Assembly: GCA_041649575.1 (NCBI GenBank)
Contig: JBAZMW010000002.1
Location: 202,792 to 234,791, forward strand
Length of the DNA: 32,000 nt
From: Patescibacteria group bacterium
GTDB lineage: Bacteria > Patescibacteriota > Patescibacteriia > 2-01-FULL-39-33
Reading direction: 5' to 3'
The notes beneath the pieces were generated by a model. That model did not search any database. It was not told the origin of the DNA and worked only from the letters and a program-made list of their open reading frames with translations. Every line of letters starts with the position of its first letter. Position 1 is the stretch's first letter. This document shows positions 748-28,541 of the stretch, one piece after another. The translations under genes were made by a program, and so were the position numbers.

Positions 748-1797
748 CTAATTTACCTTCTCCAGATACATCGGAATAACAATATCATTATTTGTAATAT
801 CTTTGGCTACTCCAGTCACGCCACTGACTTCTTTTTTGTTGGTCAGACAGCTTTCAATACTATCTTTGGGACAAGTGGCCAAAAGGTTGACAATATCAAA
901 ACCAAAGGCGGCCACGAAGTTGGGTTCTTTGCCATATTTGGCTTTGTATCTGGTTTTGAACTGCTCGCTATTACCGGGAATAGAAAAAGCAAATTGATTG
1001 GTGTAGAAAGTCATTTTGGGAGCTTTGGCTTGCGTTTCCGGATCGGATTGGACATTAGAGACTTCAACTATCGGGATATTAAACTTTAATTCTTCTATTT
1101 TTTTCAAAATGCCCAGTGATTCGCTTGGTGGTGTTGGGACGAATAACAGAGCTTCCGGTCCAGCGTCTTTGGCCTTACTAACGATGGTGGAAAAGTCAGT
1201 CGTGTTGGGAACATATGATTCCATGAAGACTATCTTTTTGCCGGATTCATCACAGAGTTGTTTGATTTTGTCAGCCACCGATTGGGCATACTCGTCTTTT
1301 CTGTAGATGACTGCTATTTTCTTGACGTTTTTGAGCGGTGAAATGTCTGATTCAAATGATGGCGTGGCAAAATGACTGGCGTCGGTATAATATCTGAAAG
1401 CATAATCATTAGTAATATTGTTAGCCGCGCTTTGAGTGATAACCATGGGAATTTTGTCCTCTTTGGCGAGTGAGGCCAGCGGCACGCTGACAATACTAAG
1501 AGCTGTCACAAAAACATCCGGCTTTTGGAGTTTTAGTTTTTGATAGGCGGTCAAACCATCGGCGGCAGCGCCTTTGCTATCCTCATAGGTGACGGCAAGA
1601 TTGGGGTGGTCTTCCAGCGCTAGATCCATGCCGTTCTTGACACTTTCGCCCCAGATGGCCGATGGGCCGCTTAGAGCCAAAATGGCTCCGATTTGGGTTT
1701 TATCATCACTGGTAGCAGCTTTATTGCCCAAGCCACAGCCGGCTAACACTACGCTTGCCATTAAGGCAACGACAATAATCAAAAATTTTGTTTTCAT
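748..1797 (-). CDS. ABC transporter substrate-binding lipoprotein, Leu/Ile/Val-binding (type I PBP) family
   Basis: Signal peptide with lipobox (VLAGCG), then the IGAILALSGPSAIWGE motif typical of LivJ/K-like binding proteins. Last gene of the liv-type operon. Confidence 0.85.
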   Translation of the reverse strand: MKTKFLIIVVALMASVVLAGCGLGNKAATSDDKTQIGAILALSGPSAIWGESVKNGMDLALEDHPNLAVTYEDSKGAAADGLTAYQKLKLQKPDVFVTALSIVSVPLASLAKEDKIPMVITQSAANNITNDYAFRYYTDASHFATPSFESDISPLKNVKKIAVIYRKDEYAQSVADKIKQLCDESGKKIVFMESYVPNTTDFSTIVSKAKDAGPEALLFVPTPPSESLGILKKIEELKFNIPIVEVSNVQSDPETQAKAPKMTFYTNQFAFSIPGNSEQFKTRYKAKYGKEPNFVAAFGFDIVNLLATCPKDSIESCLTNKKEVSGVTGVAKDITNNDIVIPMYLEKVN

Positions 1798-3715: not shown

Positions 3716-4822
3716 TTAATACAGCACGAATTGGCCGTCTTTTATTATTTTAATGACTATCGGCTTGATGGCATCGCCATTGCTGTCGAAAGTGGTGGAA
3801 CCGGACACGCCAGAATAATCTTTTATTTTATACAAGCCGTCTTTAATGCAGGTTGAGTCCACTGTTGGGCAGCTTTCTTTAATAATTTTGGCCAAAATTA
3901 TTAAAGAATCGTAGCCCTGCGCGGCAAAAATATTGGGGTCTTTACCGAATCTATTCTTATACAGATCCCAAAATTCTTGATTTGTTTCTCGTTTAAAATC
4001 AGAAGCAGCGAAGATGATGCCTTCGGCCAAGGGCCCGACCGCAGAAAGAAATTTGCTATCGGTCACTGTATTGTCAGAAATTATCTGGGCATTAATTCCC
4101 ATTTCTTTTATTTGCTTAATAATAAGAGCGACCTCCGGCATTAGGGCCCCGACATAAACTACTTGAGGATTTTTTTCTTTGATTTTTATGAGCTGGGATC
4201 GAAAATCGGTGGAGTTTTTTTGATATGATTGGCGTTCGACAATGACGCCCCCGTCTTTTTGAAAGGAATCAGTGAAGGTCTTCTCACCGATTACATAAGC
4301 ATCGCTTGACTGGTCGAAGATGGTAGCCGCTGTTTTATATTTTTGGGCCACAAATTCAGCCATTTTCTTTTGTTCGGTGCTTTCTAGGATGTGATTTCTA
4401 AAAATATAATCCCCTGCTTGGCTAATTGAATCGGCCGCTGAAGCCGGGGTCAAGATAATCATCTTGGCTTTTTCGGCCAGTGGGGCGATAGCCAAAGTGC
4501 TTTGAGAGCAGACCGGACCAATGATTATTTTGGCGCCCTTAATGGCGGTAGAGTTATAAGCGTTTATAGCTTCCTTGGGGTCGCATTTTTCGTCTTCAAG
4601 CAATAAGTCTATTTTAAGACCAGAGAGAGCTGTTTTTTCGTTAGCTAATACAATGCCATCTTTTATGTCATCACCCAGGGAAGCCATGTTTCCGCTAAGC
4701 GGCAGAATTACGCCGATTTTTATTGTTTGATTTTGGTGAAGTTTTTTGCTGGAGACAAAAATTGCAACTGCAATAATCGCCAGCACAATGATAATTACTA
4801 TGAGCCAAAATTTTGTCTTCAT
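3716..4822 (-). CDS. ABC transporter substrate-binding protein, Leu/Ile/Val-binding family (paralog 3, membrane-anchored)
   Basis: N-terminal TM helix without a lipobox Cys, then IKIGVILPLSGNMASLGDDIKDG. Sits between the permease and ATPase genes. Confidence 0.85.
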   Translation of the reverse strand: MKTKFWLIVIIIVLAIIAVAIFVSSKKLHQNQTIKIGVILPLSGNMASLGDDIKDGIVLANEKTALSGLKIDLLLEDEKCDPKEAINAYNSTAIKGAKIIIGPVCSQSTLAIAPLAEKAKMIILTPASAADSISQAGDYIFRNHILESTEQKKMAEFVAQKYKTAATIFDQSSDAYVIGEKTFTDSFQKDGGVIVERQSYQKNSTDFRSQLIKIKEKNPQVVYVGALMPEVALIIKQIKEMGINAQIISDNTVTDSKFLSAVGPLAEGIIFAASDFKRETNQEFWDLYKNRFGKDPNIFAAQGYDSLIILAKIIKESCPTVDSTCIKDGLYKIKDYSGVSGSTTFDSNGDAIKPIVIKIIKDGQFVLY

Positions 4823-8280: not shown

Positions 8281-8314
8281 GTTTCTGATTAAATTATGGC
8301 TTTTCCGCCCAAAA

Positions 8315-8385
8315 CTGGGAGACTAGGAATCGAACCTAGATTAAAGGCTTCAAAGGCCTCTGTCCTACCATTAGACGATCTCCCA
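8315..8385 (-). tRNA. tRNA-Gln (anticodon UUG)
   Basis: Hand-folded cloverleaf UGGGAGA-UC-GUCU-AAUGGUA-GGAC-A-GAGGC-CUUUGAA-GCCUU-UAAU-CUAGG-UUCGAUU-CCUAG-UCUCCCA plus discriminator G. U1-A72 is typical of tRNA-Gln. CCA is not encoded. Confidence 0.9.
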
Positions 8386-8450
8386 ATTCTGGGCGGAATT
8401 AGCGACGGCCACCGCCTTTGATTTATAAACCAACCCGAAGGCTTTGGTAA

Positions 8451-10251: not shown

Positions 10252-11075
10252 AGTTCCTGAAAAGGGGTTATTTTCACTCTGATTAAGCCCAAGCCTGGTG
10301 CTGCCAGCTTGGCAAAAGCGTTTTTGGATAAATCAACAATCCGATTTTGACAAGTACCCATTTTTTTGATCTCTTGTTCGCTCCACTGGTTGCATTCTTT
10401 GGGGCCATAATCTTTTATAGTCACCACCACCTCTTTTTTATTATCCAGGTTGGTGACCTTGATTTTGGTGTTTTGGGCAAAATCCCGGCTGGCGGCTATT
10501 AGTTCATTGCGATATTTATTGTGAACATACCAAGAAGCGTTGCCTTCCAGAGCCGGCTCATTAAACACGGCCAGCATGATTGATTTTTTGGGCAAAACAA
10601 AAGAAAGAGTTTTGTTGATGGTGTCTCGGGAGGTTTCTATTTTTTTGAAAGAAAGTTCCGACCAGTCATAGTAATAAATTTCTTTATACTGGTTGTCTTC
10701 CTGGTAGCTAACGGTGACTGTCGGCTGTTTGCTAAAAGGATTTTCGGCGGCAGCAATAATTTTTATCGAATAGAGGTCGCTGGCCGGGATCAACTCTTGA
10801 GGATAGGAAAAAAATTGGTTGATCTCGTCTTTTTTTACCAAAACAGTCATTTTTATGAGCGTTCTTTCCGCGATCGACCCGGCGCTTAAATTTATGGCCA
10901 ATTCTCTAGCTGACGAAGTTAAGTTATAATTTTCATTTAGCGGATATTCAACCGACCTTAGATAAAAAAAATCGCTGGCCCGAGCCGGTGGGCTCGAAAA
11001 CAACAAAAGCGACGATGATAACAAAAAAAAGCCAGCCGCCAAAACAATTTTTTTATTAACCAAGGGTATTGTCAT
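10248..11075 (-). CDS. Secreted RlpA-like double-psi beta-barrel (DPBB) domain protein
   Basis: Signal peptide. C-terminal NASWY...IAASRDF...KIKVTNLDNKKEVVVTIKDYGP...RIVDLSKNAFAKLA matches the RlpA-like lytic transglycosylase fold signature. Overlaps the ftsE start by 4 nt. Confidence 0.7.
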   Translation of the reverse strand: MTIPLVNKKIVLAAGFFLLSSSLLLFSSPPARASDFFYLRSVEYPLNENYNLTSSARELAINLSAGSIAERTLIKMTVLVKKDEINQFFSYPQELIPASDLYSIKIIAAAENPFSKQPTVTVSYQEDNQYKEIYYYDWSELSFKKIETSRDTINKTLSFVLPKKSIMLAVFNEPALEGNASWYVHNKYRNELIAASRDFAQNTKIKVTNLDNKKEVVVTIKDYGPKECNQWSEQEIKKMGTCQNRIVDLSKNAFAKLAAPGLGLIRVKITPFQEL

Positions 11076-11154
11076 TTTTTTTAATTAAAGTTAAGATGAA
11101 TTATAATTACAGGCTGATTCTGCTGGCAGAAAAGTCTCCAGCGGCCCAAGCTAA

Positions 11155-11225
11155 GCGAGATTAGTTAAGCGGCTTAATGTCTCCTTCCCAAGGAGATGAG
11201 GCGGGTTCGACTCCCGCATCTCGCT
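11155..11225 (+). tRNA. tRNA-Gly (anticodon CCC)
   Basis: Cloverleaf GCGAGAU-UA-GUUA-AGCGGCU-UAAU-G-UCUCC-UUCCCAA-GGAGA-UGAG-GCGGG-UUCGACU-CCCGC-AUCUCGC-U. Confidence 0.9.
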
Positions 11226-11243
11226 CTGCAGCTCAAGCTGTCT

Positions 11244-11428
11244 GCCGACCTAGCTCAATTGGTAGAGCAACGGTATCGTAAACCCAGTTAAATTTATGCC
11301 TATGTAGCTCAATTGGTAGAGCAACGGTATCGTAAACCGTAGGTTGTCGGTTCGATTCCGACCATAGGCTCAAATAAATATTTAGCAGGGTAAACCGCAG
11401 GTTGTGGGTTCGATTCCCACGGTCGGCT
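11244..11428 (+). pseudogene. Outer tRNA-Thr(CGU) copy, split in the anticodon loop by a 112-nt insert (pseudogene or intron-like nested gene)
   Basis: The 5' part 11244-11284 and 3' part 11390-11428 join into a perfect 73-nt cloverleaf with acceptor GCCGACC/GGUCGGC. GTAAACC is directly repeated at both junctions. Confidence 0.6.
11298..11370 (+). tRNA. tRNA-Thr (anticodon CGU), intact inner copy
   Basis: GCCUAUG-UA-GCUC-AAUUGGUA-GAGC-A-ACGGU-AUCGUAA-ACCGU-AGGUU-GUCGG-UUCGAUU-CCGAC-CAUAGGC-U, 73 nt. Confidence 0.9.
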
Positions 11429-11438
11429 TTGGCTGGTA

Positions 11439-12551
11439 TTATTTTATAAATTTCTTGATTTTCGCCCCGTCTAGCAATTCTTTGATATACTCATCCACAT
11501 CAACTCTAATCAATACTTGTCGTGCCTTAACGCTCTCTTTACCATTGTCTGGATTAATCATCTTTTGTTCCACCTTTACCACATGATAACCTAGCCGATT
11601 TTTGATGACTTTTTCATAAACAGCGCCTGCTGGTAAAGAAAAGAGGGCTGTTTCTAACTCTGGCGACACCTCGCCTTTTACTATCCAGCCCATTTCGCCG
11701 CCGGTATAAACACCCAGTTCGTCCTCGGTAAACTTTTGGGCTAATTTCTCAAAATCAACCTGCGGCTTCAGGGCTTCGACCAATATTTCATTGGCTCTGT
11801 TTTTTGCTTTCTGGTTAATTTTTAAACTCTCATCTTGAGTGATTGCTTCTTGCAAATTCTCCCTGGCTACCACAAAAGCCAATATTTTGTCTTTGAAATT
11901 TTGTAAATCCAGGCCATAAAGATCTTTGATTAATTTGTTGGCTTGCTGCTGGCTACCGGCCTGTTTGACAAAATCTTTTATGCGGCTGGTTAGCTCTTGA
12001 TCAGTGACGCTCCTGTTATACCTCGACAATTCTCTGTCAATCAACTTTCCCGCCGCCAGCCGATAAAAAACTTTTTCTCGAAGGCTTTGGCCATAGACAA
12101 AAGATCCGTCGATGCCTTCTCTTTGTTTGGTTAAAGCTAGATTTAGCGATTTTAAATCATCCCAATAATCGGCTAGGCCGATTGCTTCCCTGTTTACCGT
12201 TCCGGCCGGCAGGTTAATAATTCTGGCCAGCTGGTAACTGAATTTATCTTGCCAACCGAACCGATAAGCGCCCCAGATATCGGCCAAACCCACTATTATA
12301 AGAACCAGGATAAAAATGATAAATAATTTCAAAAAAACAAAATTTTTGGGTGGCTGTTGATTCCGGCCGTCTTTTTTGGACACAAACTTGCTAGGATCTT
12401 TGGCCAAAGCCATTAAAACCAAACGGCTCAAGCTTTTTGATTTTTTGGGCTTCAAGTTGGCCGGCTTTTTGCTGGTTTTATTTATTTCTTCCAAAACATA
12501 GCCCTTAAGCTCTTCTTTTCTATTGGTTGCGTGGGTTTTTTTTCTGGTCAT
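11439..12551 (-). CDS. Membrane-anchored peptidyl-prolyl cis-trans isomerase, parvulin (PpiC/PrsA/SurA-like) family
   Basis: N-terminal TM helix. C-terminal rotamase signature GGEMGWIVKGEVSPELETALFSLPAGAVYEKVIKNRLGYHVVKV. Confidence 0.8.
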   Translation of the reverse strand: MTRKKTHATNRKEELKGYVLEEINKTSKKPANLKPKKSKSLSRLVLMALAKDPSKFVSKKDGRNQQPPKNFVFLKLFIIFILVLIIVGLADIWGAYRFGWQDKFSYQLARIINLPAGTVNREAIGLADYWDDLKSLNLALTKQREGIDGSFVYGQSLREKVFYRLAAGKLIDRELSRYNRSVTDQELTSRIKDFVKQAGSQQQANKLIKDLYGLDLQNFKDKILAFVVARENLQEAITQDESLKINQKAKNRANEILVEALKPQVDFEKLAQKFTEDELGVYTGGEMGWIVKGEVSPELETALFSLPAGAVYEKVIKNRLGYHVVKVEQKMINPDNGKESVKARQVLIRVDVDEYIKELLDGAKIKKFIK

Positions 12552-12973
12552 TTTTTATTATTTTTAAAAAAATATTGCCACCATTTTTGAGGATTGCTTT
12601 GTTCTTGGCCCGATCCGCGCTCAATGATTGTTTTATTTGGCAGTTCAATTTTTTGCTCGGCGGTAGTTTTTTCATCATGAAGAACCAAAACCACCTTTTC
12701 CCCGGATTTTTGCAGACCCAGTTTTAATCTGGCCTCTTTTTCCAGTTGATTTTCTTCGGACCAATTGGCGATAGAATTGCTGATTTGGCCTTTCTCTCTT
12801 TCTAATTGCTCAATTTGATTTTCCAAATCGCCTATTTGTTTGTCCAGTCGATAACGATTTACTGCCTCTTTTACCAAGCCAATCAAAAACAACAATAATA
12901 AAATCAAACTAACGGCAATTACCGTCTTGCGGCTAAAAATCCGTTTCTTGTTTTTTTTGAGCTCTGACATCAA
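12548..12973 (-). CDS. Septum formation initiator (FtsB/DivIC family)
   Basis: Single TM helix, coiled coil (IGDLENQIEQLEREKGQI) and the EKEARLKLGLQKSGEKVV motif typical of FtsB/DivIC. Confidence 0.75.
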   Translation of the reverse strand: MMSELKKNKKRIFSRKTVIAVSLILLLLFLIGLVKEAVNRYRLDKQIGDLENQIEQLEREKGQISNSIANWSEENQLEKEARLKLGLQKSGEKVVLVLHDEKTTAEQKIELPNKTIIERGSGQEQSNPQKWWQYFFKNNKK

Positions 12974-16353: not shown

Positions 16354-16400
16354 GGGGCGTTAGCTTCCGCCTTGGCTCGGCGAGACAGGCAGCTGGTAGA
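16354..16400 (+). pseudogene. Decayed tRNA-Lys 5' fragment carrying a 24-nt insertion
   Basis: GGGGCGTTAGCT (16354-16365) and CAGCTGGTAGA (16390-16400) equal nt 1-12 and 13-23 of the downstream tRNA-Lys. They are separated by TCCGCCTTGGCTCGGCGAGACAGG. No anticodon or T arm follows. Confidence 0.45.
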
Positions 16401-16435: not shown

Positions 16436-16508
16436 GGGGCGTTAGCTCAGCTGGTAGAGCAACAGCCTTTTAAGCTGATGGTCACAGGTTCGAATCCTGT
16501 ACGCCCCA
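16436..16508 (+). tRNA. tRNA-Lys (anticodon UUU)
   Basis: GGGGCGU-UA-GCUC-AGCUGGUA-GAGC-A-ACAGC-CUUUUAA-GCUGA-UGGUC-ACAGG-UUCGAAU-CCUGU-ACGCCCC-A. Confidence 0.9.
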
Positions 16509-18541: not shown

Positions 18542-18552
18542 GCAGCCTTAAT

Positions 18553-18847
18553 AAAAAAAGCAGCTCCGCGAGTTGTGTTTATGCGACAGCACAACTCTAC
18601 GGAGCTTTGCAGGAGGAAAAGCCATGAGACTGGGAGGGCTCACGGACTTCTCGGTGGTGGTCAAGATCGGATTCGATCAAAACCTCCTTGGTGATAGACT
18701 ATTCCGGTGTCAGCCAGAGCCGGTGTTACCTTACCTGGGCTGTTTGGGCGAAATCCTTGCGGATCTCGCCATCTGTGACTGAATCGAACTCTCTCTGCTA
18801 CGGACACGACCTGGCTGACACCGGAAGATCTGGGTCGAATGTACTTA
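18553..18847 (-). ncRNA. Candidate structured ncRNA of unknown family (~295 nt), antisense to the ybaB-recR direction
   Basis: Bounded by a minus-strand promoter (18881-18853) and an intrinsic terminator (hairpin 18562-18606 plus U7 at 18559-18553). GC-rich. Has a 16-bp long-range helix and a GNRA-capped 10-bp hairpin with a strand-specific G.U pair. Confidence 0.55.
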
Positions 18848-18852
18848 CTTAA

Positions 18853-18881
18853 AAGATAACAAGCTATAAATAACTTGTCAA
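18853..18881 (-). promoter_or_regulatory. Sigma70-type promoter of the antisense RNA
   Basis: Minus strand TTGACA (18881-18876), 17 nt, TGtTATCTT (extended -10, hexamer 18858-18853). Confidence 0.6.
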
Positions 18882-25432: not shown

Positions 25433-28201
25433 TTAAAAACTGAAACCGGCCCAAAAAAACGAATCGCCAGCCTGCTTGTCTTCGAAAACTATTTTTTGAT
25501 CTTCCCGGCTGGCGGCCGGATAAACGCCCACGGCCGAAAATTTATCAGGATAAACTACTTCGCTGACTATCTTAGCCTCGGGTTCACCTGATTGTTTTTG
25601 CACCAATAAACTATAGGAATCATAACTTTTTTCCGATCTGAATGCGGCTATGATTTTATCTTTCAAGCTCAATTTTTGCTCTTGCTTCGGTTGAGCAGCA
25701 ACGCCAACTTTAAACGGCAATTTATAAACCAAGAGGAAGTCTTTGCTTTCGCCCGGACTTACAATTGCCCAATTGCCAAAAACCGTTTTGTCTTTTTCGT
25801 TATAAATCCTGGTTTTGGATGACAGATCGTCGAAGGCAAACTGTTCATTTTTCAGATCCTCGTCTGATTTCAAATAATCCTCCGGTTTTTGAAATTCCTT
25901 ATCAGCTGGCCCGGCAAAACCAGCTGCTTTGATTAATTGGCTGCCTTGAGGCACATAGACCCTCAAATAAACTCGATTGGGCGCCGTGGTGAAATTTTCA
26001 TCTATCGGGCCGAAATGATGCCGGTTAATAATCACGCGATCAATCACCGAGCCGTCCGCCATAATCGAAGCCTGGTGATAGACCTCTTGTCTGATAGCGT
26101 TGTCTGTCTTACCGCCGCCGATGTTGGCCGCCACTACCTGCAAATAATCTTTGTCGGTGCTCTTTACTCGGCCGTCCCAATTATTTTGAGCGATAAATTT
26201 CTGCTGCTCTGCCTCGTTTAAATAAATTTGGATGTCTTTGCTTTTTAAGCCGTCATTTAAAACCGTGAATAATTCCGGTAACTTTTCCGGCGGAGCCTTG
26301 ACCAGGCCGTCAATTAACTGTGGCGCCAAATCGGCCAAAATCTCTTTGGGTTGTTTTTTGTCTTTGGCTTCAAGTTCGATACTTTTCTGAATTTCTTGCT
26401 CAAAGTTGGCGGCGCTAATCGTTTTGCTGTATTTAGCCAACTGAATTTCACCCAAAACCGCCAACAGCTTTCCCAGCCAGTCGGAATTAATCGCAATCAC
26501 GCCGTCAATCGTCGGGCCGCCGCTCTTATTATAAAACCAGGTTATTTTCTTGGCTGAAGTGGGCCAATCAGGCCACCAGTTAGCATCCTGAAACTCCCAA
26601 CGGCCATTGATTAACTGTAGCGGCTGCGGCGCCAAAACCAGCTGGTTTAAGCCGGCGCGCACATCATAAGTCCCGCCTTTGGGCAGATCAATTTTCTGAA
26701 TTTCTCCCGACTTGATATCCACCAAAGCAAAACTGCCCATGAAGCCGCCGGTGGCTCTGAGTTCGTTGTCGTTTTGAAAAACCAACAAATATCTCCGCAG
26801 AGAGTTGTCGCCCAAAAAATTAATTGCAAAATCAATGATTTTTTCCGAATCTTCCAGGCTCTTGATAAAAAGCGGTAATCTTTTTTGTAATTCATAAAAC
26901 TGTTCTCTGTTTTCGGCCGGTAAGTGTGCTATATTAACTTTCTTAAAATTTTCTTGAGCCAGTTTTAGCTTGGCCAGGGCCAATTTTTCCTCTAATTTAA
27001 AATTCTTAATCCGACTGGTCAGAGAAAAATCAGAATTTTCCGTTAATTGATTTAGCCCGGAAAGCAAATGTTCTCCGGCCTTGGACATGTTTTCTCCCAA
27101 AGCGAGCAGATTTTTGCCGCTCCTTAGGGTATTATTGGGCAGGGCGCCGGCCACCACCGTCAAAAAAGAACGGATGTCCTGGAGTTGATTCTGGGCTGAA
27201 ACAAAATTCTGATTAGCCGAAGCCAGACGATCTTCGGCGGTTTTGAAATTAAGATTCTTTATTTCGTCCTGGGCCAGCTTGAGATTGGCCAGGGCTTCGT
27301 CGGCTTGTCCCAAAACTTGTCCTTTGGTTTGTTTGATACTTTGCCAATAAGAAAAGCCCTTAATCGGCAAAACCACTGCCAAAGCCACCAGCGCAAATAA
27401 AACAAAGGTTTTAAAGAAAAATTGCCGTGGCCAAAAAGTAATTTTCGAACTGGCGATTAATTTTCGTTGTCGAATTTCTGACTCGAATAATTCCGGCGCT
27501 ATGGCCTTTTTGTCAGGCCAATTGCTGGCGACTCTTTCCGCCGGTAGCTCTTTGGCCGGCTCCGCCAAAAGCGTCGTTTTTTTATTATCAAAGCTGACTA
27601 CCTCGTCTTTTTTGAAAAACCACCCTTTTATAATGGCTCTGAAATATCTAATCAAGGAATAAAGATGAGTAAAAACTTTTTTTAATCCCAAAAACAAAAA
27701 AACTAAAAGATTGATCAAGGCTGTCTCCTGCCAGACGGTCAATCCTTTACCGGTTTCTAAGGAATGTCCCCTGCCGGCTAGCGGCAGTTTTGGAGAAAAA
27801 TCAACTTTTGTGAAAAATTTGCCGGTTAATTTTAAAAACTCGTCCTTGAAATCCTTGAAAATTTTTATTATTTCGCTGTTTTCTAGTTCTAAAAGCTGGA
27901 AAACACCCAATTTAAGCAAAAAATTTCCGCCCGGCAGATCTTGATAAAAAATTTGGCCGGTCTTGGTATTGGCTGCTGGTCTGACTTTTTCAATATATCT
28001 GGCTTGCGACAAATCAAGCATATGAGGCGAAAAATAAGCATCCAAGGGGCTATTAATCGCCTTGATGGCCACATTTTTTCCCGTTCTATTGTTAACGGCA
28101 ACCTTTTGATTTTTATTTTGTTTCAAAAGCAAACCTTTGACTGACGGCTGGGAAGCTGGCAGTTTCTTTTTCTTTGCTTTGTTTTTTGTTTGTTTTGTCA
28201 C
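25433..28201 (-). CDS. DUF4012 domain-containing membrane protein
   Basis: Signature LLVFQNDNELRATGGFMGSFALVDIKSGEI plus the downstream INSDWLGKLL region typical of DUF4012. TM helices in the N-terminal third. Confidence 0.75.
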   Translation of the reverse strand: MTKQTKNKAKKKKLPASQPSVKGLLLKQNKNQKVAVNNRTGKNVAIKAINSPLDAYFSPHMLDLSQARYIEKVRPAANTKTGQIFYQDLPGGNFLLKLGVFQLLELENSEIIKIFKDFKDEFLKLTGKFFTKVDFSPKLPLAGRGHSLETGKGLTVWQETALINLLVFLFLGLKKVFTHLYSLIRYFRAIIKGWFFKKDEVVSFDNKKTTLLAEPAKELPAERVASNWPDKKAIAPELFESEIRQRKLIASSKITFWPRQFFFKTFVLFALVALAVVLPIKGFSYWQSIKQTKGQVLGQADEALANLKLAQDEIKNLNFKTAEDRLASANQNFVSAQNQLQDIRSFLTVVAGALPNNTLRSGKNLLALGENMSKAGEHLLSGLNQLTENSDFSLTSRIKNFKLEEKLALAKLKLAQENFKKVNIAHLPAENREQFYELQKRLPLFIKSLEDSEKIIDFAINFLGDNSLRRYLLVFQNDNELRATGGFMGSFALVDIKSGEIQKIDLPKGGTYDVRAGLNQLVLAPQPLQLINGRWEFQDANWWPDWPTSAKKITWFYNKSGGPTIDGVIAINSDWLGKLLAVLGEIQLAKYSKTISAANFEQEIQKSIELEAKDKKQPKEILADLAPQLIDGLVKAPPEKLPELFTVLNDGLKSKDIQIYLNEAEQQKFIAQNNWDGRVKSTDKDYLQVVAANIGGGKTDNAIRQEVYHQASIMADGSVIDRVIINRHHFGPIDENFTTAPNRVYLRVYVPQGSQLIKAAGFAGPADKEFQKPEDYLKSDEDLKNEQFAFDDLSSKTRIYNEKDKTVFGNWAIVSPGESKDFLLVYKLPFKVGVAAQPKQEQKLSLKDKIIAAFRSEKSYDSYSLLVQKQSGEPEAKIVSEVVYPDKFSAVGVYPAASREDQKIVFEDKQAGDSFFWAGFSF

Positions 28202-28328
28202 CTGTCGGGACTTATATCTTTGCCTAAAATTAAAACTAATTTTTTAAAAACTATTTGATTTATTATAACACAAAAGCCTATTTTAAAACAACCAAATAAA
28301 AATCCATAGATAAAAAAATTTTCGGCTC

Positions 28329-28358
28329 TTGACATCAACTGGACTCCTGTATTATTAT
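28329..28358 (+). promoter_or_regulatory. Sigma70-type promoter of the 28.4-kb RNA
   Basis: TTGACA (28329-28334), then overlapping -10 candidates TTATTA (17-nt spacer) and TATTAT (18-nt spacer) at 28352-28358. On the strand opposite to all flanking genes. Confidence 0.6.
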
Positions 28359-28362
28359 GATC

Positions 28363-28541
28363 ATGGTGTTGCGACATCTCTTGCTGTTTGTGGAAACCCC
28401 ACGGAACCCGCGGACAGCAAGGGCGCCGTTCCACCTCCTTTCAGCCGAAGCCACGACGGTTTTCCCGCCTCACTAACAGCGTCAGTGTGAGATCCCCTCA
28501 CACCTGAAGTGGGGAGAAACCGTCGTGGCTCAAACTTTTTT
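28363..28541 (+). ncRNA. Candidate structured ncRNA of unknown family (~175 nt)
   Basis: Promoter as above. About 62% G+C in 28381-28440 versus 25% in 28201-28260 (hand counts). 9-bp helix 28379-28387/28414-22, 7-bp hairpin 28485-28503, 14-bp closing helix 28449-28462/28517-28530 followed by U6 (28536-28541). Its G.U pairs exist only on the plus strand. Confidence 0.55.

Follow-up and report, generated by a model that had tools for sequence, protein, structure and literature searches.

In bacteria, group I introns interrupt the anticodon loops of tRNA genes, namely those of tRNA-Leu(UAA), fMet, Arg and Ile, and a free-standing homing endonuclease, SegB, belongs to the tRNA cluster of phage T4; the mitochondria of Allomyces reportedly have GIY-YIG ORFs associated with a foreign atp6 end. 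The locus described here lies at positions 11244-11428 of a stretch of 32,000 nucleotides (hereafter, the window) from an ultra-small bacterium of the Patescibacteria, and consists of the two halves of a tRNA-Thr(CGU) gene bracketing a complete second tRNA-Thr(CGU). With integrative elements it shares the insertion into the anticodon loop, the direct repeat (GTAAACC), the tRNA sequence supplied by the element and the displaced relic; however, the cassette is only ~110 bp long and devoid of an integrase or any other gene, its cargo is a complete tRNA instead of a 3' fragment, 5' and 3' relics lie directly around that cargo, and the repeat is missing in four of seven loci. A common core repeat within the tRNA is found at both junctions, but an intact hybrid gene is found at neither, because the cargo is a separate, complete tRNA and both junction copies are incomplete. 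Gene replacement by homing endonucleases is similar in that a resident gene is disrupted, a substitute is supplied and the old part becomes a pseudogene, and the units at tRNA-Lys and tRNA-His genes discussed below do carry a GIY-YIG nuclease; nevertheless, the window cassette has no ORF, the GIY-YIG units are laid out otherwise, and the role of the nuclease is putative.

Like the group I introns, the window insert interrupts an anticodon loop and could, on paper, be precisely removed (at G35|T36), but it has ~110 nt against 200 nt or more, lacks a ribozyme core, is mostly tRNA, and sits in a host gene that decays elsewhere. The archaeal bulge-helix-bulge, split and permuted tRNAs also have a break beside the anticodon, a helix at the boundary and multiple insertions (here in the loci L005, L176 and L132), whereas the position of the break (35/36 instead of 37/38), the absent geometry, the bacterial host and the decaying copies set the present case apart. 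Inverted-repeat arms, a TAAA duplication (window and L132), the absence of a protein, a palindromic site formed arm to arm, and an array of two cassettes in L005 recall MITE/REP sequences, attC sites and Xer (dif) sites, and the outermost 7 nt of each arm (GTTAAAT/ATTTAAC) bear what we take to be a resemblance to the R'/R'' boxes of integrons and to the XerD arm of E. coli dif. On the other hand, the cassette has no further copies in the window, the duplication is missing in most loci, neither IntI nor another recombinase lies nearby, the junction is not at the integron G|TT, and the target of the cassette is a tRNA anticodon loop and not attI or dif. An attC-like or Xer/dif-like site is at most a tentative lead, which neither the junction position nor the missing recombinase fits.

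All features of the locus lie on the plus strand. A promoter-like site (TTGTCA, 17 nt, TAAGAT; 11069..11097), the only plus-strand match upstream of the tRNA cluster in a scan that relied on consensus only, precedes the tRNA-Gly(CCC) gene (11155..11226; called by ARAGORN, 56.6 bits in Rfam), the first of a conserved Gly-Thr pair. The outer, resident tRNA-Thr(CGU) follows with its 5' part (11244..11278, nucleotides 1-35, the last being G35 of the anticodon) and is resumed by its 3' part (11391..11428, nucleotides 36-73, with C at position 43), whose end overlaps a terminator-like hairpin followed by a T-rich run (11420..11445, likewise from a consensus scan only). Between these parts are the left arm of the cassette, CCCAGTTAAAT (11283..11293), the inner tRNA-Thr(CGU), complete and presumed to be the working gene (11298..11370), and the right arm, ATTTAGCAGGG (11380..11390), which pairs with the left one and was located as a one-mismatch match on the minus strand. 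As read from the sequence, the left copy of GTAAACC (11278..11284) starts with G35, goes on with an additional TAAA and ends with the CC that opens the left arm, and the right copy (11390..11396) joins the last G of the right arm to T36-C41 of the outer gene. The initial annotation had described these copies as a 7-nt direct repeat; both are present, but what is repeated is in fact a 4-nt TAAA duplication, lengthened by a single flanking base at one end and by two at the opposite end, because homology with the other nested loci places the junctions at G35|T36, with an extra TAAA on the left. Within the insert of 105-112 nt, the inner tRNA takes up 73 nt, and there is no ORF.

The inner gene was called by ARAGORN and scored 72.6 bits in Rfam, in agreement with its earlier description as an intact tRNA-Thr(CGU); its acceptor stem is GCCTATG/CATAGGC, all its stems pair perfectly, and no CCA is encoded. 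A tRNA-Thr(CGU) profile matched both outer halves (11244-11284, E=1.3e-11; 11390-11428, E=4.2e-7), which, joined once through GTAAACC, give 73 nt called as tRNA-Thr(cgt) by ARAGORN, with an acceptor strand (GCCGACC) that pairs 7/7 with 11421-11427 and a T stem that pairs 5/5. The two genes are identical from nucleotide 8 to 41 (100% over 34 nt), as had been stated, and differ at nine positions. Eight of these lie in the acceptor and T stems and form compensatory pairs; the remaining one, a T to C change at position 43, creates an A27·C43 mismatch in the outer anticodon stem that is absent from all 22 orthologues; the clean outer cloverleaf proposed by the initial annotation therefore holds for its length and acceptor stem, while this mismatch had been missed. 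The suggested intron-tolerant search did not recover the outer gene, which ARAGORN does not call in place with introns of 0-200 nt allowed, and the Rfam scan of the whole window at the gathering threshold returned only four tRNAs. The complementarity reported for the flanks of the insert is real, although imperfect: the 11-nt arms are terminal inverted repeats that form 10/11 pairs if the single G-T is counted with the nine Watson-Crick pairs, the eleventh position being an A·A mismatch, and the energy of the CCCAGTTAAAT/ATTTAGCAGGG duplex (-9.4 kcal/mol) was equalled in 5 of 1000 shuffles. Apart from the cassette itself, the arm motif has three matches in the 32-kb window against 3.6 expected, so that no dispersed copies were found there beyond chance level.

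The same layout was found in at least seven other loci of unrelated assemblies (L005, L017, L084, L132, L159, L165 and L176). Two of these came from 22 syntenic relatives, 20 of which keep the gene order Gly(CCC), Thr(CGU), PPIase: L005 shows the same nesting, and in L017 a 3' relic comes after a working tRNA-Thr. The remainder were obtained from a metagenome scan whose pattern left the inner anticodon and everything 3' of the inner D arm unconstrained, and which mostly yielded chance GGTATCG sites 5' of ordinary tRNAs; among the ~120 stretches listed, at least five are true nestings (L084, L132, L159, L165 and L176), on metagenome contigs that may not belong to Patescibacteria, and further nestings surely exist. 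In all nested or relic Thr loci, the outer 3' half, wherever kept, begins at T36 (GG|TAAA), and the arm before it ends in GG(G), except in the relic of L017, where it ends in GGA. In four loci (L005, L176, L159 and L165) G35 is the last nucleotide of the 5' half, and in three (window, L132 and L084) it is followed by TAAA, the left junction of L132 (ATCG-TAAA-CCCC) being that of the window. Both the window and L132 thus have two copies of TAAA, while L084 has the left TAAA and no 3' half; the GTAAACC repeat occurs also in L132 and is absent from L005, L176, L159 and L165.

The cargo in every locus is a complete tRNA-Thr(CGU), and the inserts of the six Thr loci measured have 96-112 nt. Left arms homologous to that of the window are present in L005 (CCCCGTTAAAT), L132 (CCCCGTTAGA) and L176 (CCCCATTAAACC), arm complementarity exceeds that of shuffles in five of six cassettes, and pairing is kept by compensatory changes (TTAAAT/ATTTAA, TTAGA/TCTAA, TAAACC/GGTTTA). 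L005 holds two cassettes in array, with a full site, ATTTAACGGGG-TTCA-CCCCGTTAAAT, between them, and several insertions per tRNA were seen in L005, L176 and L132. One family of arms (CCCNGTTAAAT-like) encloses very different inner tRNAs, with acceptor strands GCCTATG, GCCAGGA, GCTGGGA and GCCGAGA. The possibility that such arms are a general feature of tRNA genes in these bacteria was rejected, as ordinary tRNA-Thr(CGU) genes have no leader-trailer helix; tRNA-Gln has one.

The comparison with sibling loci, which had been suggested as a check, showed an outer copy that is decayed or half lost in L132, L005, L176, L084 and L017, and for that reason we consider that it is not kept by selection. 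The joined outer halves are still called by ARAGORN in the window, L159 and L165, and not in L132 and L005; the outer gene carries extra D-loop insertions in L005 and L176, and its 3' half is missing in L084. That three outer genes remain perfectly foldable is expected of young insertions, and equally of a functional split gene. Allele types trade inner and outer roles between genomes: the outer type of the window (GCCGACC) is the working gene in L017 and in L004, which is identical to the reconstituted outer gene at 70/73 positions, whereas the L017 relic is of a type (GCCTACG) close to the window inner type (GCCTATG); the window inner gene itself shares 69/73 positions with its counterpart in L159, and the GCCACCT type, which works in L084, is found in L132 as the decayed outer gene. 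Inner and outer genes are thus different allele types, each at work in other lineages, and outer copies decay, as in a gene replacement where a foreign version displaces the resident one.

Recurrence, a fixed junction and cargo, paired arms, outer decay and allele swapping are the reasons why we regard a site-specific, like-for-like replacement at the DNA level as the probable explanation, with the inner gene working and the outer halves a young relic; the lack of an RNA-level splicing signature is a further reason. The recurrence at the same nucleotide suggests a small, undescribed way of tRNA gene turnover rather than a new kind of intron. One of the readings offered by the initial annotation was that an insertion with a target-like repeat had turned the outer copy into a pseudogene, and this is supported, except that the event is not a one-off but recurrent, position-specific and like-for-like. 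The resident outer tRNA-Thr(CGU) would have been cut, in DNA and not RNA, between G35 and T36 by a protein-less cassette of ~110 bp, in which two complementary arms flank a complete tRNA-Thr(CGU) of another allele type, and like-for-like cargo would keep the host viable. The inner gene would then be transcribed from the tRNA-Gly promoter in a single transcript and freed by RNase P and RNase Z, while the paired arms would stop the inner cloverleaf from mispairing with identical outer sequence, and the outer halves would have no decoding role. We infer the co-transcription with tRNA-Gly from the consensus scan, which found no promoter-like site directly 5' of the inner tRNA. A new cassette would thus enter the anticodon loop of a working gene and take over, leaving the old halves to decay, and the next cassette could hit the new gene, because it has the same ATCG|TAAA target. 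Movement presumably relied on an outside enzyme (a site-specific recombinase or nuclease targeting the anticodon arm), on homologous recombination via the tRNA halves after DNA uptake, or on both.

Some observations sit less easily with this replacement. Pfam searches of 20 window ORFs and of flanking genes found no mobilising enzyme in the 32-kb window or beside any nested Thr locus, and no polymorphism of filled and empty sites was found inside one species; both count against it. An arm family that encloses diverse inner tRNAs is awkward for arm and cargo moving as one unit, and the TAAA duplication occurs at only 3/7 left junctions; no single simple mechanism, be it target-site duplication or common-core exchange, accounts for every locus.

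The initial annotation had also considered a true nested or split tRNA. On this view the insert would act as an intron; once RNase P and RNase Z, or a hypothetical endonuclease, had freed the inner tRNA, the outer halves would undergo trimming and ligation or pair up in trans, giving two tRNA-Thr(CGU). The joined halves do fold cleanly in the window, L159 and L165, precise removal is possible, a helix closes the insert at the junction, and the 185-nt transcript as a whole folds far better than shuffles (z = -4.96), but we find such a product very unlikely. RNase P and RNase Z would leave an arm of 17-20 nt on each half and a broken anticodon, the anticodon is the same in both genes so that a second product adds no decoding capacity, the outer gene of the window has the A27·C43 mismatch, and the outer copies decay or lose a half in the five loci named above, contrary to the conservation of exons that an archaeal-type split tRNA would show in relatives with the insert. 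A hidden ribozyme or known intron was rejected, as the Rfam search of 11100-11500 (cmscan, E<=5) found no intron or ribozyme family and only tRNA-related matches; a group I or group II intron was rejected for want of a covariance-model core and, as had been pointed out before, for the size of the insert (105-112 nt against ~200 nt or more). Splice pairs consistent with the junctions in the window, L159 and L165 reach at most 6 of the 10 pairs required for a bulge-helix-bulge, a motif of two 3-nt bulges on either side of a 4-bp helix, which was rejected as well, and the better-scoring positions elsewhere yield no tRNA. No splicing endonuclease or RNA ligase was found among the ORFs scanned in the 32-kb window. 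Judging from its sequence, the insert is probably not an intron, and it is highly improbable that the young outer copies are rescued by a putative RNA splicing route. The third reading put forward earlier, an assembly chimera of two strain variants, has in its favor a 34-nt exact repeat in the region and the breaking of short-k Logan contigs (L002, L200 and L201) within tRNA-Thr; we give it next to no credence and consider it refuted in practice, for a whole additional gene with flanks of its own is not something that a strain switch could produce, and the architecture was found again in assemblies from unrelated projects. In addition, a second assembly reproduces the right junction: contig L002 of Logan SRR8542065 equals window positions 11324-12589 exactly, covering the 3' part of the inner gene, the right arm and the outer 3' half, and running into the next gene. 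The best PPIase homologue is only 55% identical to that of the window genome. A look-up of PPIase homologues in other assemblies led to one ordinary locus (L199) and to two contigs that end inside tRNA-Thr.

Two further origins leave splicing aside. The locus could be the scar of a larger integrase element, such as a phage or island, that entered the tRNA-Thr anticodon loop and later lost all but a tRNA and the att arms. The anticodon loop is a classic integrase target, and is said to figure as such among the sublocation classes of Williams 2002; GTAAACC at both junctions resembles an att core, the arms once circularised would form a palindromic attP-like site of the kind seen in full in L005, and a large serine recombinase adjoins a tRNA-Lys unit in L207. 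Such a scar is nonetheless unlikely, given that six independent Thr loci have inserts of 96-112 nt made only of arms and tRNA, on which independent deletions would not converge in size, that no integrase lies in or near any Thr locus, and that classic elements bring just the 3' part of a tRNA and leave just a 3' relic. A local accident, be it an in-place duplication or rearrangement (slippage or template switching at tRNA hairpins) or an illegitimate integration of foreign DNA acquired from a relative, followed by divergence, would agree with the identity of nucleotides 8-41 in both genes and with the many partial tRNA-gene duplications of other kinds in these genomes. It is made improbable by acceptor stems that differ at three base pairs in a compensatory manner, each type working in another lineage, which indicates foreign origin rather than local duplication, and by the recurrence of the 3' junction (|TAAA) and of related arms in unrelated loci and gene contexts. 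Besides, the inner and outer genes of one genome are not each other's closest relatives, the opposite of what such an origin would give.

If the cassettes proposed in the replacement scheme are mobile, they would be among the smallest known elements to carry a working gene, having no protein and replacing the very gene they destroy, and they would explain why the acceptor stems of tRNA-Thr(CGU) differ in almost every genome of the clade. They would also turn tRNA genes into sites where horizontal exchange among ultra-small, DNA-scavenging bacteria can be followed, and extend to bacteria an old idea that ties interruptions at tRNA anticodons to attack by mobile elements. In the literature covered, an incomplete part of the whole, neither a tRNA lodged within its twin nor, for these bacteria, a unit of GIY-YIG and tRNA was found described, which we take as a weak sign of novelty. 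Because tRNA finders give the inner gene only, the outer halves are never annotated, and since the repeats at such loci break short-k assemblies, as observed in L002, L200 and L201, nesting should be allowed for when the tRNA genes and pseudogenes of such genomes are counted.

Related relics are not restricted to tRNA-Thr. On Patescibacteria contigs, tRNA-Lys and tRNA-His genes are accompanied by relics of themselves whose anticodon arm carries a conserved palindrome, TCCG(C/T)C…G(G/A)CGGA, and a GIY-YIG nuclease gene (PF01541, E=6e-16) lies directly 5' of the working tRNA. Among the GIY-YIG proteins are some of 85 aa, such as P0016. These units run in the order 5' relic, palindrome, ORF and tRNA, usually with no 3' relic, and the same palindrome is present in the L017 tRNA-Thr relic. 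An endonuclease gene accompanies only the Lys and His units, none having been found with the cassette in the window or in any nested Thr locus. Among viral contigs, there was no match to the nesting pattern or to the pattern of left junction plus arm, and the GIY-YIG profile retrieved only weak relatives, none beside a tRNA. We tentatively propose, as a view that may well need revision, that Patescibacteria hold a family of tiny selfish tRNA-replacement elements, comprising the protein-less Thr cassette and a larger GIY-YIG form at Lys and His, which home into the anticodon arm of the same isoacceptor, killing one copy and supplying another. The conserved tRNA halves around the cargo could then serve as homology arms for spread by DNA uptake, and one invasion after another would leave relics nested in layers and make acceptor-stem alleles turn over fast. 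An ORF in L084, which has no Pfam match, looks by eye like a LAGLIDADG endonuclease, and the window itself contains a tRNA-Lys relic, at 16354-16400.

A tRNA-Thr(CGU) cassette, composed of a complete tRNA gene and two flanking complementary arms, occurs in the DNA of several genomes, always at a single invariant position within the resident tRNA-Thr(CGU) gene. The split tRNA-Thr around a complete tRNA-Thr(CGU), first read from the window sequence, was confirmed by the sequence itself, ARAGORN and Rfam. Next to a tRNA-Gly(CCC) called by ARAGORN at 11155-11226, the inner tRNA-Thr(CGU) is complete at 11298-11371 (ARAGORN; Rfam 72.6 bits) and is flanked by the outer halves, 11244-11284 and 11390-11428, which, when fused once via their common GTAAACC, give a 73-nt molecule called as tRNA-Thr(cgt) by ARAGORN. 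These halves are not a chance resemblance, since a profile from 22 tRNA-Thr(CGU) genes matched both of them (5' half, E=1.3e-11; 3' half, E=4.2e-7). Nucleotides 8-41 of both genes are identical, as the initial annotation had reported, and eight of the nine differing positions form compensatory pairs within the acceptor and T stems. At the remaining one, a change of T43 to C creates an A27·C43 mismatch in the outer gene that had gone unnoted when its cloverleaf was described as clean. The acceptor stem (7/7) and T stem (5/5) of the outer gene pair fully. The complementarity previously proposed for the insert flanks also exists, but it is imperfect: the duplex of CCCAGTTAAAT and ATTTAGCAGGG has an energy of -9.4 kcal/mol, a value reached by 5/1000 shuffles. 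The neighbouring genes, encoding a DPBB-domain protein and a peptidyl-prolyl isomerase (PPIase), are both on the opposite strand. A promoter-like site upstream of the tRNA-Gly, the lack of one directly before the inner gene and a terminator-like hairpin overlapping the end of the outer gene suggest that the tRNA-Gly and the inner and outer pieces probably form a single transcript.

The possibility of an assembly chimera, raised initially, is contradicted by a Logan contig from another assembler (SRR8542065), which matches window 11324-12589 exactly, a stretch that takes in the 3' part of the inner gene, the right arm, the 3' half of the outer gene and the gene after it. The contig stops inside the 34-nt repeat shared by the two tRNA-Thr genes, as expected of a k=31 assembly. 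More importantly, the same architecture recurs in other loci, which in practice refutes an assembly artefact. Three Logan (k=31) contigs with the PPIase gene (that from SRR8542065, L200 and L201) terminate within the tRNA-Thr. Short-k assemblies are interrupted by the repeats at tRNA loci, so that public assemblies probably under-represent structures of this kind.

Alignment of the PPIase yielded 23 Patescibacteria-type loci from species-representative genomes, some of them recorded under titles that indicate other groups, with tRNA-Thr readable in 22. The order Gly(CCC), Thr(CGU), PPIase is kept in 20/22 of these, and a single plain tRNA-Thr(CGU) is likewise present in 20/22, the exceptions being the loci L005 and L017. 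L005 is nested as in the window: on the tRNA strand, the outer 5' part ending …GGTATCG is followed by CTCG and the arm CCCCGTTAAAT, a complete, different tRNA-Thr(CGU), the arm ATTTAACGGGG, a second arm pair enclosing a 35-nt hairpin and, lastly, the outer 3' part from TAAA. Its outer gene also bears a 100-nt D-loop insertion and lacks nucleotides 40-42. At L017, a relic found 6 nt after the working tRNA-Thr reads, in succession, TGGTAGAG, TCCGCCGTGGCGGA and TAAACCGT…CGTAGGCT.

A metagenome scan for GGTATCG, 10-40 nt and a standard D arm, with the inner anticodon and everything downstream left free, revealed at least five true nestings (L084, L132, L159, L165 and L176), most of the matches listed being noise. 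Every case, that of the window included, has a complete tRNA-Thr(CGU) as its inner gene, and the inserts range from 96 to 112 nt. The 5' half ends at G35 in L005, L176, L159 and L165, and at G35 plus TAAA in the window, L132 and L084; the 3' half, where present, has T36 as its first nucleotide, and the arm before it terminates in GG(G), or in GGA for the relic of L017. Two families of arm sequences were recognized, one CCCNGTTAAAT-like (window, L005, L132 and L176) and one rich in CCYGCC (L159 and L165), and arm complementarity, above that of shuffles in 5/6 cassettes, is preserved by compensatory changes. L132 also has, at 4098-4260, a second, older tRNA-Thr 5' copy (GCCACCTTA … GCTCAGTTGG … ATAGCAATGGTAT) broken by several small hairpin insertions, one of which contains CCTGTCTGCC…GGCAGG, a sequence resembling the L159 and L165 arms.

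The outer gene is not maintained in most loci. For the window, L159 and L165, the fused outer halves are still called as a tRNA; those of L005 and of L132, the latter with C56T in its T loop and mismatched T and acceptor stems, are not. L176 is a jumble of fragments in which several …GGG/TAAA junctions occur, and L084 retains the 5' half only. Allele types also switch roles: the window outer gene, 70/73 identical to the working gene of the comparison locus L004, is of the L017 working type, and the L017 relic (GCCTACG) is near the window inner gene (GCCTATG). Similarly, the GCCACCT type is the working gene in L084, which has in addition an older 5' relic (GCCCTCT), and the decayed outer gene in L132. 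At the level of sequence, this decay and exchange of roles argue for serial replacement, and a conserved split gene is rejected. The initial annotation had also listed, as one of its competing readings, a genuinely nested tRNA whose released halves would need ligation or trans-association. No intron or ribozyme was detected by Rfam at E<=5 in 11100-11500, an archaeal bulge-helix-bulge scan reached at most 6/10 required pairs at splice pairs yielding a mature tRNA (window, L159 and L165), and, from the established activities of RNase P and RNase Z, processing by these two enzymes alone would release halves that still carry arm sequence, with the anticodon broken. Because all three arguments go against it, a functional split tRNA is very improbable.

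Partial tRNA copies beside working genes are common in the loci compared. The closest relative, L003, has in order a tRNA-Lys 5' relic, the palindrome TCCGCCAACTGGCGGA, the remainder of the anticodon loop, an 88-aa GIY-YIG nuclease gene (1277..1011, minus strand; PF01541, E=6e-16) and a complete tRNA-Lys. This family of 85-aa nucleases had 4273 matches at E<=1e-8, many of the named ones labelled Patescibacteria. For five further homologues, from several distinct neighbourhoods, the ORF lies upstream of a complete tRNA in 5/5. The gap measures 3-28 nt in L202-L209 and 9 nt in L221-L228; in L219/L220 it is about 180 nt and is occupied by two tandem pseudo-tRNA copies. The downstream tRNA is Lys(UUU), and once His(GUG), in these contexts (L003, L202-L209 and L219-L230). 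One to three relics of the same tRNA precede the ORF (L219 has three tandem copies), each with an anticodon-arm palindrome, TCCG(C/T)C…G(G/A)CGGA, that takes the place of the 5' strand of the anticodon stem. The same palindrome in the L017 tRNA-Thr relic links the Lys/His units to Thr. The window has its own tRNA-Lys 5' relic (16354-16400), separated by 35 nt from the working tRNA-Lys(UUU) that lies downstream (16436-16508) and consisting of GGGGCGTTAGCT, an insert from TCCGCC… and GCTGGTAGA; the same relic occurs in L003 but, unlike L003 with its GIY-YIG gene, no ORF was found at the window relic. The Thr cassette and the GIY-YIG units have two key traits in common, the like-for-like replacement and the anticodon-arm palindrome, and differ in layout, in that the Thr cargo lies between the arms and the Thr cassette has no ORF.

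The Thr cassette is a tRNA-gene-targeting insertion that restores the function it destroys, unusual in its minimal form and recurrent in its nested arrangement, after which, as far as the compared loci indicate, the resident halves decay. The target tRNA-Thr(CGU) is probably single-copy, for which reason like-for-like cargo would be required. Scanning of ORFs across the 32 kb revealed no recombinase, transposase or homing endonuclease. The cassette may be mobilised in trans. In a circular form, its arms would together make up a palindromic site, such a site being intact in L005; the 7-nt repeat of the window is compatible with a 4-bp staggered cut or common-core exchange, and, after DNA uptake, the nested allele could spread by homologous recombination through the conserved halves (35 and 38 nt). 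The absence of the TAAA duplication from four loci and the dissimilar cargo tRNAs inside similar arms fit this mechanism poorly. The closest systems are tRNA-targeting integrative elements, endonuclease-driven gene-piece replacement, group I tRNA introns, archaeal bulge-helix-bulge introns and MITE-, attC- or dif-like palindromes, with none of which the cassette agrees in full, and no description resembling the nested tRNA-Thr was found in a literature search of incomplete coverage.

A tRNA-Thr(GGU)-like gene with a ~200-nt insert just past the anticodon occurs in L132 (3778-4046, plus strand) and L084 (2697..2424, minus strand); it was not called by ARAGORN, and its insert matched no group I intron or other Rfam family at E<=0.1. 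Just upstream of it in L084 is a 195-aa ORF that had no Pfam match and in which a LAGLIDADG-like motif can be made out by eye. The acceptor stem of the window tRNA-Gln (8314-8386, minus strand) is lengthened by a strong leader-trailer helix (8303-8322/8379-8398; 20-nt arms, 90% complementary), similar to that of its orthologue in L011 (8060-8420), where there is also a 5' relic comprising nt 1-18, together with an insertion of ~165 nt that shares homology with the insert in the D loop of the outer tRNA-Thr in L005. In another comparison locus (L013, 8095-8383), a 16-nt exact copy of the tRNA-Gln 3' end (nt 56-71) lies about 200 nt downstream, a pattern classically left behind by the integration of a small element into a tRNA gene. 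The tRNA-Asp 3' end (T arm and acceptor strand) is repeated in inverted orientation ~50 nt downstream in both L084 (3500-3600) and L132 (2930-3015), and the conserved repeat surrounds a terminator-like hairpin. Elsewhere in the window, a non-coding, G+C-rich and strongly structured stretch between ybaB and recR (18545-18870), with a perfect 16-nt inverted repeat (18702-18717/18811-18826) and no Rfam family at E<=0.01, may be an unrecognised structured RNA. An intergenic, perfect 14-nt inverted repeat with arms 54 nt apart (28449-28462/28517-28530), just upstream of the ORF at 28198-28434 (minus strand), may be a structured leader.
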